The position numbers and the translations under genes are program-made. A DNA stretch of 34,057 nucleotides from Stramenopiles sp. TOSAG23-3. Taxonomy: Eukaryota. This document shows, in pieces, positions 11,707-29,832 of this stretch. The notes beneath the pieces are model-generated. The model was not told where the DNA came from. It ran no database searches and saw nothing but the letters and a program-made list of their open reading frames with translations. Location: positions 1-34,057 of the forward strand of contig LT642206.1 in assembly GCA_900128585.1 (NCBI GenBank), written 5' to 3'. Each line of letters opens with the position of its first letter. The stretch's first letter is position 1.

Positions 11707-14211
11707 TTACCGCGAGTATAAAACTTTGATATTTCTGTCTATTTTCCACATGTAGTCCACGTCTGCGATAATGGTGGCAATGTGCATTTTGTCTTCCCAG
11801 CTTAATCTGTCTATGCTGCTGTCGTCTTTGATAAATGGTCGTTGTTGCGTCACAGATTCCATGCGGATCTTAACGATGTTGTTAGAAGCAGAATCAAGAA
11901 CATGGCAACAATCGTTGTCGTCAACCTTCCCTTTTAAACAATACTGGTGATGCGCGTCTCTAACAGATACATATAACAATCGATCACCTGTGCTCAATAT
12001 ACGAGATCGCCACGTTGTCCACCATAAATGCAGATAATTTCCTGTGCATTGCTCTGGGGCAATCCCCCCACCGCCAATTCCCCTCGTTGCTTTTCCTGCA
12101 GTCGAGGCATTTCTTATGGTTTCAAACAAACAGTGAAATGCCAAAGTAGTCCTTTCCCCCTCTCGGCCATCAAACAGTGGGGATGGGTTTCTGAGAACTG
12201 GTTTTCGAAATTTTATTCTCCAATAATGGTACGATCGGTACAATTTTTCATTACGAATTATTTCTGACAAATGTTCTGCCAGAGAGCGCACGGACGGCAA
12301 ATATTGTACTGCAATGAATGCACTCGGCCCAAATTTCACGACATCCTGTATATCGAATTCTAGAATATCGGGTGGCCCAAGTACTATGGGGATCGCTCCA
12401 GAGAGGAGTGCTATTTGCAGTTTCTCGTCAACGTAGCTTTCGCACAACGAATTCATTGCTACAAGTTCAAACATGTACATTTTTGATAGTTTTGATTTGG
12501 CCGTTTCCCACCCGTGGGCCGATCGTCCAGCGCTCCCTGGTATATTTGGCCAATCGGTGTTGTGAAGACAACGCCCATATGATTTTAGAATGATTGCAGA
12601 CCTGCCTGCTGCCAGTTGGGGACCATTTAACGTCGAATTTAGTAACAAAGCAAAACGGTCTCGATCACTCGCAGTGTTGCAATGCGAGTAGACGTAAAGA
12701 ATATGGGGAAGGCGTGATGTAAAATCTGGTGCCGGCCCTGCCACATCGTACCTCATGGTTTCAGTCATGGGACAATTGGAACGTTTGCTACGAGTAGCAC
12801 TTACTTGAAAAATGCCCGAAAAAGTGGGGTCTTCCAGAATTCTGTCCGTCGTATATCTGGACGATTCATACGACAGGACTGCCCACACCTGGCCGTGCGG
12901 GCGGTCTTTGAAAGGCGGCGGGGCCATGTAAATTGTGGGAGCATGGTACAGAACAGCGTTTGCACGAGGCAAGCAGAAGCGGTTGAGAGTAATATAAGTC
13001 GTTAGGTCACTTCCAGTGACTTTAAGTATCATTTGCTCAGGCTCCATTTTTCCAGCAGATGGTATGCAAAGCACATCACCCGGTTTCAACTCTTGCGGGG
13101 ATTTTCCTTGGTTGTTGTTCATCAAATTACCAAGAGAAACGCGGTAGGTCTGCGAGATGGACCACATACTATCTCCACTCTTAACAGTCACACGTTTGGA
13201 ACAACGGTTCAGAACGGGGAATCCAGAGACTACATTTACAAGAATCGAATCATCAGGAATCATCTTTCTAAGAAACAGAAGTGCGTTTCCTTGGTCAGAA
13301 TACACGTCTGCCCAGGCAAGAATGAGTAAGCTGTTGTCGTCTCGCTGCGCTACATCAGCTTCGGCGCACTCTGAGGACCTTCCTGTCTTTCCCTGGAATT
13401 TTCTACTTTTCCATTCTATGTAGTCGGTTGTAAAGATCTGCTTCTGCAATCCGTACATACCCGGGTAAACGGACGCGCCAGTGCCAATCGATTTGCGTAC
13501 AAATGCAGGTTTTACGAATAGTTGGGTATACTCACTGTTGCTGACATCCACCTTTTGGGCTGCGTAAAGCCACCCGTTGCTGGAGAAGCCAAAGCAATGA
13601 GAAACTTTGTCACACGCATTCCCGATTGTGTTCAATGCGGTCCCCGTCACTTGGAACAAGGGCAAGTGCCTAATATCCCATGTGATTTTGCCCAAGCTCC
13701 GGCAATAATGGGAGCTGCCGTGCTTGACAAAGAGCACCTCTTCTTTCAAAATTACCAAATGAGCCAAGGAGCGACCGTTCGATGCGATTCCGATACAGGA
13801 AGGCGTAGAGCTACAGCGGTTGGATTCCATCATTTGGGCGCTATATCCGAATCTGTTGCTGGCACCATTCCAATCCCCCACGATAAATTCATGGTAACTC
13901 TGACGATATTTATCACACAGACCGTACACTTCCACCCTCCGCCTTTTCGAGTTCCATCGATGCAAGATATAAGACGCAATGATCCCACCTTGGTACTTGA
14001 AACCTAGTATATTTAACTTGATGGAGTTCGGCATGAACAGTACACCAGCGCAATCTGATAGGAGCAGAGCAAACAAGAGGTGCATTACTAGCTTGAGCGA
14101 ACGGAGCGTTTCACGTCCCTCCCCCCTTCTCCCCGTCTTCATAGCCGGGTAATTTTGGTACCGTTCATAGTACCTTTGTTTCATGTACCCCCCGCTATGC
14201 GTTTGATTCAT
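11707..14211 (-). CDS. GT10 alpha-1,3/4-fucosyltransferase-like protein with a LysM domain, 834 aa (alternative start at ATG 14085)
   Basis: LysM VTVKSGDSMWSISQTYRVSLGNLMNNNQGKSPQELKPGDVLCIP. GT10 motifs ANAVLYH, SYES, YSHC...R, SYGRCLHN, YMFELVAMNSLCESYVDEKLQIALLSGAIPIVLG, YRSYHYWR. N-terminal hydrophobic segment. Confidence 0.85.
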   Translation of the reverse strand: MNQTHSGGYMKQRYYERYQNYPAMKTGRRGEGRETLRSLKLVMHLLFALLLSDCAGVLFMPNSIKLNILGFKYQGGIIASYILHRWNSKRRRVEVYGLCDKYRQSYHEFIVGDWNGASNRFGYSAQMMESNRCSSTPSCIGIASNGRSLAHLVILKEEVLFVKHGSSHYCRSLGKITWDIRHLPLFQVTGTALNTIGNACDKVSHCFGFSSNGWLYAAQKVDVSNSEYTQLFVKPAFVRKSIGTGASVYPGMYGLQKQIFTTDYIEWKSRKFQGKTGRSSECAEADVAQRDDNSLLILAWADVYSDQGNALLFLRKMIPDDSILVNVVSGFPVLNRCSKRVTVKSGDSMWSISQTYRVSLGNLMNNNQGKSPQELKPGDVLCIPSAGKMEPEQMILKVTGSDLTTYITLNRFCLPRANAVLYHAPTIYMAPPPFKDRPHGQVWAVLSYESSRYTTDRILEDPTFSGIFQVSATRSKRSNCPMTETMRYDVAGPAPDFTSRLPHILYVYSHCNTASDRDRFALLLNSTLNGPQLAAGRSAIILKSYGRCLHNTDWPNIPGSAGRSAHGWETAKSKLSKMYMFELVAMNSLCESYVDEKLQIALLSGAIPIVLGPPDILEFDIQDVVKFGPSAFIAVQYLPSVRSLAEHLSEIIRNEKLYRSYHYWRIKFRKPVLRNPSPLFDGREGERTTLAFHCLFETIRNASTAGKATRGIGGGGIAPEQCTGNYLHLWWTTWRSRILSTGDRLLYVSVRDAHHQYCLKGKVDDNDCCHVLDSASNNIVKIRMESVTQQRPFIKDDSSIDRLSWEDKMHIATIIADVDYMWKIDRNIKVLYSR

Positions 14212-15129: not shown

Positions 15130-15268
15130 CTAAAAAAAAAAAGAAGGAAGAAGAAAGAAGAAGGAAGAAAGAAAGAAAGAAAGAAACAAACAAACAAACA
15201 AACAAACAAACAAACAAACAAACAAACAAAACAAACAAACAAACAAACATACAAACAAACAAACAAAC

Positions 15269-15320
<52 letters not shown>

Positions 15321-15322
15321 AG
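15130..15322. repeat. Compound (GAAA)n/(CAAA)n microsatellite
   Basis: Directly visible GAAA block, CAAA block, GAAA block. Confidence 0.95.
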
Positions 15323-21515: not shown

Positions 21516-22152
21516 CTTAACAGTCTCGCAATAGTATTGAACCTCGTATTGAACTCATGGTATCAGTAACCGCGCTCATTTTTTCCCAAGCAATATTGCA
21601 TGTCGATTGTAAAAGGATCGCCGTGAAAGTTGTTACGGTCTTTGGACGAGAAGAATGCATACCTCGAAGTCACCCGAAAGATTATATACTACTGTATATA
21701 TTATTATAGTTTTCAAAAGAGAACGAGGACGACTGCTGTGAACTGAGAAGCAACATACTACATTTTGTTGATTTTTTTTCTTGCTGTGCTTGTATAATAA
21801 TATTATTTTCATAGATTCATTCTTCTTCTAAAAAACTTATTATAATAAAAAAAAAAGAAGGAGAGGAGAAGAGGAGGAGAAAAAAAAGAAGAGGAGAGAC
21901 GATGATGAATTGTTGTTGTTGTTGTTGTACTTCTTGTTGCAATAATTATTATTATCCCTTTATTTTTTATTATTTTTTTTATTATTATTATTTAAAAAAA
22001 AATCTACCTGTATCATTTACAATTACTTCAAAAAAATTGAATGCAAACAAATAGAACATTGCTTCAATTTTTTTGTGTTTTTTTTCTTCCAACTGCGTTC
22101 CTTGGCACCCCTGGGGTTGTAATTGACATATTTATTTTACTACGACGCTAAA

Positions 22153-23400
22153 ATGTCGCAAAGGATTATTGGTCGTCCACCAACGTGGGTAAACGTCTTG
22201 CGAAGGTCAAAAGATTTTATAGACCTGAGAGTTGGGCAGCCCGACAGGAACCATTTACCCGTACAAGAGTTGGAGGAGGCCGCCGCTTCATGTTTTTCCG
22301 GGCCCTATGGGATTGATGCAAATGACCCCTGTCGATTTTTGCAATATGGTGGGGAGGATGGGTGGACTATTATTTCCGAGGTACGTAGTTTTTTGAACAG
22401 GTTCGATCGCTCCCGTACGACGCAAACGGGGGAGTTGATGATGTCGGCTGGGAATTCGCACGCTATAGAGTTGATCACCAGCACGTTTACGAAACCCGGC
22501 GACACTGTACTGGTTGAATCCCCAACTTACTTTCTGGCCCATCGAATTTTTGAAGACAACGGATTATCTATCGTTGAAGTAGATTTTTCGGCTAAGGAAG
22601 AACTACTCCAAGCAATAAATAAACACTCACCCGCCCTTGCTTACTGCGTGCCGAGCTATCAAAATCCAGGATCCACAAATATTTGTGAGGCAAGGCGAAG
22701 TGAAATCGTGGAATTGGTAAGAGATAATGGCGTCACTCTCATAAGTGACGAGGCATACCAACTTCTGCACTTTGAGTCTGCTTCTCCTCCCCCTCCCCCA
22801 CTCGCAGAATTGGATAGAAAATACACTGAAGTGGGGGGTAAGGGCAATGGAACTGTGCTATCTTGTGGGTCGTTTTCGAAAATTGCTGCACCAGGCTTCC
22901 GGTTAGGATGGATAGAAGGTGACCTAGGTTCGCTGGAAAAGTTAGCAAACCGTGGCTATTTAATATCGGGTGGAACAGTCGCTTCCCCCATTTCATGCGC
23001 ACTAATGGAACAAATTTTATCGTCTGGAAAACTCGAAGACATTGTTATACGCCTCCGCCATCTTTACGAGAAAAGAGCGAATGCATTAGTAGACGGGCTT
23101 CAAAATTATTGCCCCTCTGTCAAGATTGCAAATGTGGATCGTATTGAAGGCGGCTACTTTGTATGGTGTGAACTTCCCCCAAGTATCGGGGATATTCACC
23201 AATTCTTGGAGTATTGTATGGCAAATGAGAATTTATGCTTTTTGCCTGGCGATGCATGTTGGTACAACAACTCTTCGGGAGAGCTGGAGAGCACGAAAAT
23301 GGTACGCCTGTGCTTTGCTATGTACGAATCTGAGCGTCTTGTAGAGGCCACCAAGCGCCTGGGGCGCGCGCTTAGTTCGTATACAACCCCAGGCCAATAA
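22153..23400 (+). CDS. PLP-dependent class I/II aminotransferase (MocR/2-aminoadipate transaminase-like), about 415 aa
   Basis: IDLRVGQP, LQYG, VLVESPTY, VPSYQNPGS, ISDEAY, PLP-lysine motif GSFSKIAAPGFRLGW, VRLCFA. First ATG is at 22153 (the ORF track starts at a TTG). Confidence 0.92.
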   Translation: MSQRIIGRPPTWVNVLRRSKDFIDLRVGQPDRNHLPVQELEEAAASCFSGPYGIDANDPCRFLQYGGEDGWTIISEVRSFLNRFDRSRTTQTGELMMSAGNSHAIELITSTFTKPGDTVLVESPTYFLAHRIFEDNGLSIVEVDFSAKEELLQAINKHSPALAYCVPSYQNPGSTNICEARRSEIVELVRDNGVTLISDEAYQLLHFESASPPPPPLAELDRKYTEVGGKGNGTVLSCGSFSKIAAPGFRLGWIEGDLGSLEKLANRGYLISGGTVASPISCALMEQILSSGKLEDIVIRLRHLYEKRANALVDGLQNYCPSVKIANVDRIEGGYFVWCELPPSIGDIHQFLEYCMANENLCFLPGDACWYNNSSGELESTKMVRLCFAMYESERLVEATKRLGRALSSYTTPGQ

Positions 23401-23752: not shown

Positions 23753-26700
23753 TTACTTTTTAACGTACGAGCTGTGGCGGGCAAACGTAGATCGAAGACT
23801 GGAATGTTTGATTTGTGATTTGCGTCGACGAAAACTCGCAAGACGTTGCGCATCAACCAATGATAGTTGCCCAGCCCCCCTCACAAGCTGGGCCCCGTCG
23901 CTGGGTTTTGGCAAACTCATGCCTGGATGATGGGTTTGGCGGCGGCCACTTACCGTTTGGGTCGGGGAGTAAGTAGCTCCCATCCCAGTGAATTGCTTAA
24001 TTTTTGAAATTTGTGAAAATGAGTTACGTCGCCCAGAAGACAATTTTGGTCCTGGTAGGGCATTTTGGTTACTATCCTCTACCTCTGGATCTACACGAGC
24101 CATTCCATGGTCCTCTTCTGTACGTTTTGAAAAAGTAGCGACGTTTGGTGCTACATTCTTCCGGTCAACAATTAGTTGTTGCATGCCATGCAGCAGCTTT
24201 ATTTCTGTTGTGTACTTCTTTTTCTCCTCCAAACGTTTGGTCTCCAGCGCCCGGATAGCCGCCGACATTTCGTTTTTTTCATGTTGCTCTTGAATCCTAT
24301 TGTTCAGTTTTGTATTGAGGTCTAGAACCTCTCGCTTCACCTTCATCATTTTCATTATTTTCTGGTCGTTTTCTTCTATGTTTCTTTTAATTAATTCGTA
24401 GCTTCGTCGTTCCCATTGTTGTTCAACATCTTTGAGTTTGTCCTTTAAAATTTGGTTTTGCAACTGTATCCTGGAGATAATTTTGTTTTTGAACAGTTTT
24501 CGCCAACCCAGGAAAAGGCGCGAGCGCCGGCCATTTGCCACAGCTTTCATCATTAGCTTAATGACCTTCTCTTTCTTCATTTGTTTAGTGCAGTGATCTT
24601 TAAGAATGTTGAAGCTATCCTGAAACTGACCAATCAAATTTTGGTATACCATCTTCGCATACTTTTGATAAGTGTAATTTTTTTCAGCTTTAGCTCGCAT
24701 TAATTCGTAATCGACCACCATGTTCGAATACTTTTCATCTTTTTCAGCAACAATTCGGCTATGATCTTTCTCCATGAATTGGAAAGCTTCGGCGGCATCG
24801 GCTTCTGAGGTGGCTTTTCTCCATATGTGAAAACGTTATGGTGTTTTTCAAGTACTTTGGTCAGTACTGTACACGCCAACATAGACTCACTCTTATATTC
24901 TACTTCCGCATCTATTATCGAATGGATTTTTCCCGACCATATTTTGAATGCTCGGTGTTTAACAGCGTGCAGATGTTTAATTATTTTTCCTAAAACTAAT
25001 TTAACTGCAAATCCAGAGGTCTCTAAAGAGCGTTCTCCCTCAATCATTTTTAAGTTTTTGTGATGGCGCAAAAGCAGAACGCGTTTGTGCCACAAAAAGA
25101 ATGATTGGGTTTGCTTTGATTCCCAGTAGTTGTACAGCTCGTTGAGTTTCAATTTCAGTGTGGATTTGGATTTCACCTCCTGAACCACCCTTTCGTTCTC
25201 TTCTGCGAAACTGCCTAGCAGGTTTTTGTGCCCATTCTGGAGATCCTCCATTTCTTTGTTTTTGGCCTCGATGGCTAATTGGTTTTGCACTTGTACCTCT
25301 TCCATCGCCTGGAGCAATTCATTCATTTCTCCCTGCTTTTGTTCATTAAAATGTTCCCGCTGCAAATTCATTTCTTCGATTTTCTGCTGCTCCGCCCGAG
25401 CCTCTGCGTCTTTCAACAGGTCCTCGAATTTAATCTTTTCCTTTACAACTTGATCATTTGCCGTTTCAATGCTTTGTCTTATTTCCTGATTTAGGTTTTC
25501 GATGATCACGTCATTGTTCGTCATCGTCTTTTCCAATTTTTCGTTCATGGTATCCAAAGCTTTCGCGTGTTGCTCGGCAATATTTTCTTTTTCGTTGCGG
25601 TGCTGCTCTGCAATACTTTGCTTTTCTTTATGATGTTCTTCTTTCGTTTTATTTACAGTAGCTTCGTGTTCAAGTTGGAGTAACTCCCGGTCTTCGGCAA
25701 ATTTTGCCCGCGCATCGTCCAGCAGCTTCAAGGTCCGAGCAGTTTCTTCTACATGCTGGTTTTTAAGCTCTTCCATCTGAACGTGACGGTACTGCTTCTG
25801 CCTACTCATGAATTCTTCATTATCGTCTTTGATTTTGGAAATTCTTCTTTCGTATTCTGCAACAACTTCCTTTTTGTAATTTTTGAATTTTTCTTGCTCG
25901 TCTTTGACCACTGCTTCGTGGTCAAGCTTTTGCTTCGCTATGTCATTCTTTACGTGGGCAACGGCAGCGCCCAAGGCTTCCTTTGATTTTGCTCGAATCT
26001 CTTCTGTGTGGCTCATGTACTTTTCATTTAAACTTTTAATTTCCTCTTGGTGGCGGTTGTGTAAGGTTTTCTCCTTCGTGGCCCATTCCTCCTGCATTTG
26101 TTTCATAGAACTTGCGTTGCTTTTCCGCTCGGTTTCTAAATCACTTCGTACCGTTTTAATCTGATTTTGATAGGAAGTTACCATTTCGTTGACAGATGTT
26201 GTGTGATCTGCTTGCACTTTCCCCAAGGCCACTGCGTGCTGTTGGTGAAGAGATCGCGTTTTCTCCAATACAGCACTATTGTGACTCTCGCGGAGTTCAG
26301 TAATTTCTTTCAACATCTTTTCATTAATTTCTTCCATGCTGAGCGCATGCGCCTCCCGAATATCGTTTAGCTCTTTTGCGTGCTCCTTTTTAAGACATTC
26401 AATAGCATTGGTTTGAGCAGCTTGTTCATCTTTCATTTTTGAATTAAACAGAGCGATGGCTGCGGTATGTTCATTTTTTATGTTGTCGATTTCTTTTCGA
26501 TGTTCTTCCACCGTTTCCCGAAGCAAAGCATCATTGCGCACTTTCTCGTTTTCAAACTGTTTCATAACTACCGCATGATTTTTAGCCATATCTTCAGCAT
26601 TGCTAGCGTGGCGCTCCCGCTCTTGCACGTATGAATTCACTTCAAGTTTGTGGCTGTCCACTATGTCTGCTAATGTCGCGGAGTGACTTTTTCTCTCCGA

Positions 26701-28926
26701 ATCTAGCGTTGCCTGCAAAGACTCCAACGTCATGTGATGCTCCTCTTTGATATCTCGCATTTCATTCTGATGAACCGCCTTCAATTGATCAACGTACTGC
26801 GCGCTTCGTGCTTCTTCCATTTTCTGTGTTTGCAGCATTTGCTTTTCATATTGATCGAAATGGTGCTTTTGGTGCTCCATATTCTTGCGGGCCAGTCCTT
26901 CCTGAAGCTTCAATTGGTTTTGCAGGCTAGACAACGATTCATTGAATTCTTCCTGCAGTTTCTCTTTTAAGGTCTGCTCTAGCTTTTTTATTTCAATTAC
27001 ATGATCTTGCTTTGCCTTTTCGGCATCATTTTCTGCTCGCTTCTTGATCTTCTGTATTTCTTCACTTGATTGCAACAGTTTAGTCTCTAGATTATGCTGG
27101 TCTTGAAGGAGCCGTTTTTTTGTTTCCTCTGCATCACGCAATTCACTCTCGTACCCACGCACCTGGTCCGAGTGGTTACGTTTCAATGATTGAATATCGC
27201 CCTTGTGACCCTCGGTGATATGATCTATTCTACTGTCTTGTTTCTTAAGATTTTGCTCCAGCTCTTCCATTCGCCCTTTCATCTCTTGCTTTGCAACAAC
27301 TAGCCCTTTTTCGCTTGCTCTGAGAAGCGTCAGTTTTTCTTTCAGGCCAGAAATATTTTCCTCTAAATCTTTTACAAGATCTTCACCGGAACGAAGTTGC
27401 AGTTCATTTCGTTTCTGAATTACTTCTATTTCGCGCTGTTTTTCTAATTTGGAGGTTTCTTGAATGCGCTCTATGGCGTCCTGGTGGGTGTGCTTTAAGT
27501 CCGCAATGGTAGCAACTAACTGCTTTTTCTCAGTTTGGTAGTCCATGCTAGTGTGTTTTAGTTCTTGCAGCTTTTTGTCGTACTTTTTTGTCCACTTTGT
27601 ATTGCTTTCTTCGGACATCTTCTTCAAGTCGCGCTGTTCTTCGCTAATTTCCTTTATTTTACTTTCGTACGTATATTGTTCGGATCTGCGTTTTTCTTCT
27701 GCTTCCTTTAAAAGTTCGTCCACATTCTCGCAAGTTTTGAGTTTTTTCTTTAACTCCTCCAATTTTTCTACTTGCTTCTCACTTTTGACGGCTTGTTCTC
27801 GATTCTGCGCTTTCAAGTCCTCTATCGCATCTAATGAATCAGTGTTACGTGATTTTAGTTCCCGGCATTCAGCTTTTGCCTCCGTAAGTTTTGACCTATA
27901 TTCATCTAGTTTTTGGTCTGCAATAAGCTCTGCGGCAGTTAATTTCGCCTCCGCATCTTTTGTTATTTCTAATTCTTTGGTAATCTGCCGTTGGGCGTAT
28001 TTTTTTTCTATCGCCAGATTTTCGCTCTTTGACTTGTCTAACTTGTCATGCAGATCTTTCATCTCCGCATTATATTGAGCTTCTAACTTTTGCTTGCTCT
28101 CAGCACACTCCGATTCCGCCTTTGCTTCGACTGTGGATATTCTGTTTTCGTACTCTTCTACAGTTCTAATATGACTAGCCTTTTCGTCCGCCAGTTTTGT
28201 TTTGCAGTCGTCTATTATTCGCTGGTATTTTGCATCTAGACTAGTCTTTAACCCCTCGCTCTCGTCATGGCGCCTTTGCTCGGCTGAAGATATTTTCTTT
28301 TCGTAATCTTCTATCAGTTCGGCATTCTTCGCCTTTTCTGCAATTGTTTTTTTCTTGCAATCGTCTATGATTCGTTGGTACTTTGTATCTAATGCCGCCT
28401 TTAGCGTTTCGCTCTCATCTATAAGTTTTTGCTCTGCTGCAGAGAGTTTTGTTTCGTACCCTTCAGCGATTTCTATACTTTTCTGCCTCTCGGTCCCCAC
28501 CTTCTTCTTATAATCGTTGATTATCGCCTGATACTTTGCGTCCATGTGTGCGTATTTTGTCTCCAACTCGCTTTTTAGTTTGATGCTCTCCCCATGAATC
28601 TTCTGTTCCATTTCCCTAGTTTTCTCATCTCGCTCGGCAGTTACTCTCCCAAGTCGTTCCTGCAGCGTTACAATATTTTTATACTGCAAGTCTGCCAAAT
28701 GCTTTGAAACCTTTCTAAATATCTGTTCTTTTCTTGGTTGATCTTTAATTTTCATTTGGGTACAAAACCGTTGACAAGCGACTTCAGGATCATCGCCTAT
28801 ATTTATTTCAGGAGGCTGTTGTTTTCTTTGAGCCGCAACAGCATGAAGCTTTTTCTGCAGCGCGGTAAAGTCCCCCGGGGAGTGTTGTGGACTCAACGCC
28901 ATCCCCTCTTTGTTATTATTCGACAT
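23753..28926 (-). CDS. Very long coiled-coil protein, split by a -1 frameshift near 24830-24833; about 1724 aa if joined
   Basis: ORF 24700-28926 (1408 aa, E/K-rich) overlaps ORF 23753-24775. The frame of the second ORF is open back to about 24835 and reads FHIWRKATSEADAAEAF, matching the F..W repeats found on both sides. Confidence 0.8.
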
Positions 28927-29494: not shown

Positions 29495-29552
29495 TTTTTA
29501 TTATTATTTCTTCTTTTTTTTCTTCTTTCTTCTTTCTTCATTCTTTCTTCAT

Positions 29553-29605
<53 letters not shown>

Positions 29606-29832
29606 ATTCTTTCTTTCTTTCTTTCGACTCTTTCTTTCGACTCTTTCTTTCGACTCTTTCTTTCTTTCGACTCTTTCTTTCGACTCTTTCTTTCTTTCTT
29701 CTTTTTTTATTCTAATATTATATATTCTCTCTTTCTTCATTTTTTCTTCTTCTTCTTCTCCTCTTCTTCTTCTTTTTTTCCTTTTTTTTTTTTGTGTTTT
29801 GTTCTTCTTCTTTGTTTTGTTTTTGTTGTGTT
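29495..29832. repeat. Polypyrimidine (TTTC)n/(TTC)n satellite with four TTCGACTCT variants
   Basis: Directly visible. A unit containing ttcgactct recurs four times between about 29620 and 29690. Confidence 0.92.

Follow-up and report, generated by a model that had tools for sequence, protein, structure and literature searches.

A GT10 fucosyltransferase-like protein of a marine microbial eukaryote with a LysM module nested in its acceptor lobe

Carbohydrate-binding modules are rarely carried by glycosyltransferases, and when present they are usually terminal. The ppGalNAc-transferases carry ricin-type lectin domains; NodZ, a bacterial and cytoplasmic GT23 α1,6-fucosyltransferase, acts on chito-oligosaccharide Nod factors and is without a LysM. 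In FUT8 and MGAT2, which are cited as exosite users (PMC12929593), a glycan-binding module in cis directs the glycosyltransferase to certain glycosylated substrates. GT10 enzymes are described as normally fucosylating N-acetylglucosamine (GlcNAc), either in N-acetyllactosamine (LacNAc) or in the N-glycan core (PMC12717137, PMC12929593). Two of them are of particular use here: human FUT9 (α1,3-fucosyltransferase; PDB ID: 8d0o, 8d0w), with an acceptor cavity reported to be sculpted by four loops, i.e., residues 69-81, 136-153, 157-169, and 326-330 (PMC12717137), and Arabidopsis FUT11 (core α1,3-fucosyltransferase; PDB ID: 9s6a), with an additional acceptor-side subdomain that is reported to anchor the N-glycan with its chitobiose core (PMC12929593). 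LysM modules are described as binding GlcNAc-containing glycans, and MoCVNH-LysM of Magnaporthe oryzae, in which a single LysM sits inside another domain, shows that a LysM tolerates nesting (PMC4392113). Here, we report a GT10 protein encoded on the minus strand (11707-14211) of a 34,057-nucleotide stretch of DNA (the window; contig LT642206.1 of Stramenopiles sp. TOSAG23-3), in which a canonical LysM is nested between the first strand and the rest of the acceptor lobe. An earlier note on this DNA had described the LysM as inserted at this place and had proposed a secretory-pathway or surface enzyme that fucosylates chitin, chito-oligomers, or bacterial peptidoglycan. The observation itself is confirmed by our analysis; the interpretation as a whole is partly supported.

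The window protein is like FUT9 in its GT-B fold and core (284 aligned residues, 23% identity). Glu137, Arg202, Asn246, and Lys256 of FUT9 correspond to E449, R517, N587, and K597 here, and both are type II membrane proteins, as predicted from sequence in the case of the window protein. FUT9, however, has no inserted domain: its strand 1, loop 69-81, and HLTTDR segment fall within about 30 residues, whereas the equivalent parts are about 110 residues apart here, with the LysM between them. FUT9 also has the Glu of the FENS motif where the window protein has Met, and it is without both the conserved N-terminal region of 230 residues and the C-terminal domain of 113 residues found here. Arabidopsis FUT11 is likewise a GT10 enzyme with an extra part on the acceptor side (268 residues aligned with the predicted structure); this part, in contrast, is N-terminal, is not a LysM, and supplies the catalytic base (Glu158), while the LysM of the window protein follows strand 1 and the putative base is the canonical one. 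The modules of FUT8, MGAT2, and the ppGalNAc-transferases are terminal, come from other families and folds, and include neither a LysM nor any case of nesting in a Rossmann lobe. NodZ would be a functional analogue if the window protein fucosylates chito-oligosaccharides, although it belongs to a different family, GT23. The host of the nested LysM in MoCVNH-LysM is a CVNH lectin, not an enzyme, and its two domains are reported to act independently (PMC4392113).

A search of the full-text literature, with the InterPro and CAZy architecture tables outside its scope, gave no account of a fucosyltransferase, GT10 or other, with a LysM inside it or joined to it, in agreement with the earlier note, whose author knew of no description of this architecture. 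The texts returned in which LysM and fucosyltransferases co-occur, PMC4815162 among them, are inventories of carbohydrate-active enzymes, LysM-Cre mouse papers, and unrelated mentions. The layout is rare: its parts are well known, and the combination of a LysM within a GT10 enzyme is new to the literature searched.

Position of the LysM in the GT10 fold

The translation of 11707-14211 gives a single frame of 834 residues, stop-free throughout (intronless complete open reading frame (ORF), stop included in the coordinates; all features of the gene given below are on the minus strand). Pfam finds the LysM family PF01476 at residues 342-384 (13060-13188) with an E-value of 9.8e-13 and 48.3 bits, far above the cut-off of 20.9, and the match spans profile positions 2-43 of 43. 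The GT10 C-terminal domain PF00852 is found at residues 504-670 (E 3.7e-19; 69.5 bits vs cut-off 23.9). The GT10 N-terminal domain PF17039, the third family that the earlier note had proposed to scan for, stays below threshold at residues 407-473 (E 0.008; 17.1 bits vs 28.7). This last match covers profile positions 33-97 of 109, leaving the first 32 or so positions outside it, which the LysM insert would account for by parting strand 1 from the remainder of the domain; in each of the three full-length family members about 30 positions at the start of the PF17039 profile are unmatched. Against solved structures, phmmer with the catalytic part returns human FUT9 as the best match (E 3.8e-9), followed by mango FUT13 and Arabidopsis FUT11, and residues 337-391 are matched by a series of LysM proteins. 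A search of the PDB with the family profile gave nothing beyond the LysM and GT10 parts.

By its sequence the LysM is a canonical one. The best single match in the PDB is the chitin-binding effector Ecp6 (E 5e-11), and peptidoglycan enzymes follow closely, i.e., YaaH (E 8e-9), a protein related to a Thermus cell-wall endopeptidase (1.5e-8), and LytE (3e-8). It aligns without gaps with the LysMs of Ecp6, YaaH, LytE, and chitinase A. We place the nested LysM (CBM50) at residues 337-385 (13057-13203), based on the Pfam match and the predicted fold, and the LLILAW strand at residues 295-300 (13312-13329). The earlier note had found both features; its positions were one base off for LLILAW and a few bases off for the LysM.

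The window protein, three relatives, and 37 GT10 homologues were aligned with MAFFT (41 rows). The first strand of many ordinary GT10 enzymes aligns with LLILAW and their conserved cysteine with C337 (codon 13201-13203); of the 41 rows, 32 have an aromatic residue in column 300 and 28 have Cys in column 337. Across the LysM the ordinary GT10 rows are gapped (LysM column 382 is a gap in 37/41), and they resume at the T-x-N/D-R and A-D-x-V-x-F-H strands. In the family (four rows) the Thr of T-x-N/D-R lies 70, 78, 78, and 71 residues from the cysteine; in the remaining 24 rows with the cysteine this distance is 1-25 residues, with a median of 7. Between strand 1 and the LysM lies a family-specific segment (strand 1 and segment together 13204-13341; strand at residues 294-299 with a predicted local distance difference test (pLDDT) of about 89-92), which reads W300-D-x-Y-x-x-Q-G-x-A-x-x-F-x-R-K-M-x-P and then leads into C337. 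After the LysM comes a return linker at residues 386-405 (12997-13056), poorly conserved at 11-17% identity and containing a predicted strand at 394-399, and then the remaining N-terminal Rossmann lobe at residues 406-500 (12712-12996) with the ITLNR..ANAVLYH strands and the putative base E449 (codon 12865-12867).

AlphaFold2 was run on the 41-row alignment and gave a model with a mean pLDDT of 68 and a predicted template modelling score of 0.69; pLDDT is mostly 70-95 over residues 260-834 and stays below 50 over residues 1-258. Along the chain the model has, in this order, strand 294-299, helix 310-317, strand 323-326, the LysM, strands 394-399 and 404-408, and then the remaining GT-B fold. 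The LysM itself is predicted as β-α-α-β (strand 337-342, helices 349-355 and 360-366, strand 380-384), and model residues 337-385 superpose on the LysM of Equisetum chitinase A (5bum_A) with a Z of 8.5, root mean square deviation (rmsd) of 1.3, 49/49 residues, and 37% identity. The predicted structure is a GT-B fold that superposes on solved GT10 enzymes: FUT9 (8d0o_A, residues 63-359) on model residues 294-721 with a VIA Z of 20.0 and an rmsd of 4.2, mango FUT13 with a Z of 16.8, Arabidopsis FUT11 with 16.7, and Helicobacter pylori FucT with 15.1. The superposition begins at model residues 289-294 for the eight GT10 entries listed, and for nearly all other GT-B enzymes listed its start stays within 289-296, i.e., upstream of the LysM. 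Foldseek with the model returned FUT9 at an E-value of 1.5e-13, and in the ESM Atlas model of this protein the alignment with GT10 clusters starts at residue 289-290. Alignment with its cysteine spacing, predicted structure, and the truncated PF17039 match agree with each other and with the earlier note that the LysM is nested between strand 1 and the remaining N-terminal Rossmann lobe, and not appended.

Where the LysM lies relative to the acceptor pocket can be considered with FUT9 as the guide. The FUT9 superposition starts at residue 63, and therefore loop 69-81 is the loop that follows strand 1. The FUT9 cysteine at chain index 54 (residue 91) stands immediately before HLTTDR; the window protein has T405 there, with the LysM just upstream. 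The insert, 66 residues long (residues 338-403, one LysM plus the return linker), is located between two canonical cysteine positions of the GT10 N-lobe, the first of which we take to be Cys82 of FUT9. From this mapping of loop and cysteine, the insert is expected to follow the counterpart of acceptor loop 1 at a distance of a few residues. Please note that it is solely the insertion point that suggests proximity of the LysM to the acceptor cleft.

Catalytic residues, topology and relatives

The protein is, judged from its sequence, a GT-B fold, inverting GT10 fucosyltransferase that should use guanosine diphosphate fucose (GDP-fucose). The residues that the earlier note had named as retained, i.e., E449, R517, N587, Y593, E596, and K597, all stand in conserved columns of the 41-row alignment. 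E449 of the SYES motif (Glu in 36/41 rows) aligns with Glu137 of FUT9 (chain index 100), the proposed base of that enzyme; roles for Arg202, Asn246, and Lys256 of FUT9 are given in the same report (PMC12717137). R517, which follows YSHC, is the equivalent of Arg202 (Arg in 40/41), N587 of Asn246 (kept in 40/41), and K597 of Lys256 (kept in 39/41). E596 is likewise kept in 39 rows, S509 in 39, and Y593 of the Y-x-x-E-K motif in 35. Glu449 probably serves as the base, and binding of the donor should fall to Arg517, Asn587, Glu596, and Lys597 in the GDP-fucose lobe (residues 504-670; 12202-12702; PF00852), where S509, R517, N587, E596, and K597 are located. The usual ENS reads MNS, as had been noted before: M586 occupies the position of the Glu, and Met is found there in 4/41 rows. 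The complete column holds E in 24 rows, Q in 5, A in 5, M in 4, H in 1, P in 1, and one gap, i.e., the Glu is absent in 16 of the 40 rows having a residue in that column; it is common and not universal. His510 stands where FUT9 has Asn195, although two close relatives (P0004 and P0005) keep the Asn.

A putative type II signal anchor is located at residues ~39-61 (14029-14097; LKLVMHLLFALLLSDCAGVLF). It is the only strongly hydrophobic segment of the protein and is preceded by a basic, K/R-rich N-terminus; in a Kyte-Doolittle scan with 19-residue windows the protein peaks at residues 41-59 (mean 2.14). This single segment (residues ~39-60 as given for the comparison with type II glycosyltransferases) is in line with the secretory-pathway type of enzyme that the earlier note had proposed. 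The predicted layout is that of a type II Golgi glycosyltransferase, i.e., a short cytoplasmic tail, one N-terminal anchor, a stem, and a lumenal catalytic part; by the positive-inside rule we infer that the catalytic part would face the lumen.

Relatives were sought by an exhaustive HMMER search of 1.84 billion representatives, which gave 2326 matches at E <= 0.001, and the best 150 of the 2326 were examined. Three of these 150 (P0004, P0005, and P0006) match across the whole architecture of the query. P0004 has 891 residues (41% identity), P0005 has 914 (39%), and P0006 is a fragment of 272 (53%). Pfam confirms LysM and GT10 in P0004 and P0005 and the LysM in P0006 (PF01476 at 27.1, 34.8, and 43.6 bits in P0004, P0005, and P0006, respectively; PF00852 at 63.4 bits in P0004 and 51.9 in P0005). 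In each of ten further long or multiple matches among the 150, Pfam gives a single kind of domain, LysM repeats or GT10; for the remaining 137 the position of the match on the query alone was used, i.e., on a LysM-only or GT10-only stretch. Two word-indexed homologue searches returned 2 matches each and no further family members. A scan of metagenomes added a fifth member, L005, 49% identical to P0005 and with the LysM kept. Its gene has one spliceosomal-type intron of 111 nucleotides (GTAAGT...TAG; L005 2477-2588) downstream of the catalytic core, which the window gene is without, and its source organism has a GC content of 32% vs 47% for the window gene.

The LysM is present in 5/5 family sequences, which come from separate marine metagenome records, one of them from an ocean survey. 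Identity to the window protein (P0001) is 35-53% over the whole protein and a comparable 39-63% over the LysM. Within the family, conservation is strongest in the GT10 core (49-50% to P0004 and P0005), and residues 291-336, just upstream of the LysM, are 43-54% identical to P0004, P0005, and P0006. A FastTree phylogeny was built from the catalytic core (residues 406-680; 250 columns; 41 sequences; unrooted), with P0006 left out, being without the core. On the core alone the four LysM-bearing sequences form one clade with a support of 1.0; the insert thus has a single origin, within a distinct GT10 lineage of protists. The sister group (support 0.76) consists of five GT10 proteins without LysM, and the named lamprey POFUT3 (P0141) and Trichoplax FucT representatives are placed elsewhere in the tree, where the deep nodes are weak.

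Some side observations belong here. One of the best 150 of 2326 matches, P0148 (799 residues), is annotated at its source with a GT10 C-terminal domain and a Concanavalin A-like domain, and lectin additions to GT10 may recur in environmental eukaryotes. We also considered a giant-virus origin, for which we found no support: the three loci matched in viral contigs are LysM-level matches only, none with a GT10, and the phage collection has no match to the protein.

At half or more of the sampled words the locus is found in 14 run rows. Any part of it occurs in 20 run rows from 13 studies, for the most part metagenomes of marine origin or from seawater, and the source itself may account for three rows. 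A second copy of the gene is found at metagenome locus L004 with a DNA identity of 99.97%. In RNA data, 12 short contig pieces (151-267 nucleotides) from 4 runs and 3 studies lie on the window at 95-100% identity, 11 of the 12 on or overlapping the gene and free of joints and indels. Two of the four libraries are poly-A or oligo-dT, although DNA can occur in such libraries; transcription of the gene is plausible. None of the 12 pieces covers 13014-13213, a stretch that includes the LysM. The conservation of the LysM segment in five family sequences argues against its being spliced out, which the earlier note had named as an observation that would speak against its reading.

Proposed function and alternatives

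We propose that this is an enzyme with the LysM as a built-in reader of GlcNAc glycans beside the GT10 pocket, a reading to which we assign, from sequence and predicted structure, a rough probability of 0.55. In this marine microbial eukaryote the protein would be a type II membrane glycosyltransferase that has its catalytic part in the lumen and uses GDP-fucose as the donor. The nested LysM would act as a built-in lectin for a β-1,4-GlcNAc glycan, either a chito-oligomer or chitin-like chain or the chitobiose core of an N-glycan, and would hold or feed the GlcNAc-bearing acceptor at the neighboring pocket, which would raise affinity or processivity and set specificity. Both the ligand of the LysM and the coupling of its binding to catalysis are inferred from sequence; that the LysM helps the enzyme to find GlcNAc-containing targets is probable. 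Such a protein would be a natural test case of an in-cis lectin that sets the specificity or processivity of a GT-B enzyme, and it suggests that a widespread lineage of marine protists has a fucosylated glycan containing GlcNAc. The insert is compact with clean boundaries and may serve as a template for grafting binding modules into fucosyltransferases. In a more specific version, which we put forward tentatively and think unlikely, the family fucosylates chitin-like chains or chito-oligosaccharides in the secretory pathway and the LysM slides along or clamps the polymer, which is then decorated by the GT10 pocket beside it. If true, this would be the first glycosyltransferase with a LysM reader inside the acceptor lobe, and an abundant, uncultured lineage of marine eukaryotes would have a fucosylated GlcNAc polymer or signal molecule.

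Several points weigh against the proposed reader role. The model is based on a shallow alignment of 41 sequences, with its mean pLDDT of 68 and residues 1-258 unmodelled. The homology of the LysM is equal for chitin and peptidoglycan binders and gives no choice between them. The Glu of F-E-N-S is replaced by Met in the window protein and in all family members, and full activity is not certain given this change. Finally, the two domains of the nested MoCVNH-LysM are reported to behave independently (PMC4392113), and therefore a simple tether role stays the main rival.

In that account the GT10 enzyme is active, and the LysM only tethers it to a GlcNAc-rich matrix or glycoprotein, or plugs into the structure, with an unrelated glycan as the acceptor. 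Besides the independence of insert and host in MoCVNH-LysM, the return linker with its 11-17% identity suggests a flexibly attached module, and the conserved residues 95-290 and 722-834 could carry substrate recognition in its place. The insertion, however, adjoins the equivalent of the FUT9 acceptor loop 69-81 and not a distal surface or a terminus, few parts of the protein are as well conserved as the segment before the LysM (43-54%), and GlcNAc, the typical GT10 acceptor as described for FUT9 (PMC12717137), is of the ligand class of LysM; we consider a mere tether possible but rather unlikely. GT10 is also reported to include protein O-fucosyltransferases (PMC11949838), and the window protein could be one of the POFUT3/POFUT4 (FUT10/FUT11) kind, acting on Ser/Thr in a folded protein domain, with the LysM and its flanks recognizing protein. 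The nearest structural cluster in the ESM Atlas is indeed named α-(1,3)-fucosyltransferase 10-like (TM score 0.38 on the query and 0.63 on the row), and the long C-terminal extension resembles that of FUT10/11. But the LysM is a glycan-binding module, the best solved matches (FUT9, mango FUT13, and Arabidopsis FUT11) all act on glycans, and the LysM family falls outside the clade of lamprey POFUT3 in the unrooted FastTree, a tree with weak deep branches and a support of 0.76 at the sister node. Protein O-fucosylation is an improbable activity for this family on these grounds.

A role against bacteria would have the GlcNAc of peptidoglycan or muropeptides fucosylated, the target being prey, symbionts, or an organelle wall. 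LysM binds peptidoglycan in many proteins, and YaaH, the Thermus endopeptidase-related protein, and LytE match the LysM about as well as chitin binders do. The best single match is nevertheless the chitin-binding Ecp6, we know of no eukaryotic fucosylation of peptidoglycan, and the predicted type II anchor would put catalysis in the secretory lumen together with GDP-fucose, where peptidoglycan is not expected; because of this predicted lumenal topology we regard peptidoglycan as the least likely ligand, and we give little credence to this part of what the earlier note had suggested. Could the GT10 part be catalytically dead and serve as a lectin or scaffold? The Met in place of the F-E-N-S Glu in all family members would fit, as would His510 at the position of FUT9 Asn195, although P0004 and P0005 keep Asn. 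However, the protein retains Glu449, Arg517, Asn587, Glu596, and Lys597, no part of the family is better conserved than the GT10 core, and the column equivalent to Glu-245 is non-Glu in 16 of 40 GT10 homologues, which makes loss of activity very improbable. An artefact, either an assembly chimera or an unrecognized intron read as LysM, would agree with the gap in RNA coverage over 13014-13213. We give it next to no weight: the same in-frame layout is found in five diverged sequences (35-53%) from separate metagenome records, the locus recurs in the run rows and studies described above, and the LysM clears the Pfam cut-off by a wide margin and is conserved as protein sequence, with contigs free of joints and indels.

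Gene layout and genomic context

Outside the LysM and the GT10 lobes, two parts of the protein are conserved in the family. The first is a cysteine-containing region at residues 95-290 (13342-13929) with columns invariant across the LysM-GT10 family, i.e., C170, C200, C206, F209, S210, and G213-Y216, and with the motif H-C-x-G-F-S-S-x-G-W-L-Y. It has no Pfam match and no sequence match in the PDB; AlphaFold2 of residues 95-292 alone gave a mean pLDDT of 38.7, and confidence is low there in the full-length model too. By eye only, its cysteine pattern is PAN/apple-like, and the region is a candidate second binding module. The second part is at the C-terminus (residues 671-834; 11710-12201), where the helices that complete the GT-B fold (residues 671-721) are followed by an extra α/β domain at residues 722-834 (11710-12048). 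This domain, with five strands and three helices, lies beyond the end of the FUT9 superposition at residue 721. Its pLDDT is about 77-87 through residue 820 and about 64-65 over the last 14 residues, and it is kept in P0004 and P0005 at 28-36% identity.

The neighboring genes in the window are eukaryotic in kind: a protein with ankyrin and Agenet domains, one with kelch and ephrin-receptor-like domains, a Rad51 paralogue, and a long coiled-coil protein. A class I/II aminotransferase is encoded at 22123-23400 on the plus strand; only metagenome proteins come close to it (identities of 99% and 56%), and its matches in the Atlas are of mixed taxa. Among named proteins the nearest, at ~34%, are enzymes of bacteria, MocR-like or of the 2-aminoadipate type; a bacterial origin is possible. 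The gene next to the family member L005 (3566-4834) also encodes an aminotransferase, weakly similar to that of the window at 25% identity over 161 residues. The resemblance could be a trace of a shared neighborhood, or chance.

Microsatellites of the (AAAG)n / (TTTC)n type, with 27 to 51 copies each, are found at 1-117, 15132-15321, and 29507-29748 in AT-rich intergenic spacers. On the minus strand, 24700-28926 is an ORF of 1408 residues, rich in Glu, Lys, and Gln, coiled-coil-like, and without a Pfam match; the strong AT skew of the region at 24-29 kb is due to this ORF. The stretch at 963-1888 is purine-rich, with a GC content of 0.57, an AT skew of +0.43, and long overlapping ORFs on both strands, and it looks like low-complexity coding sequence or a repeat.

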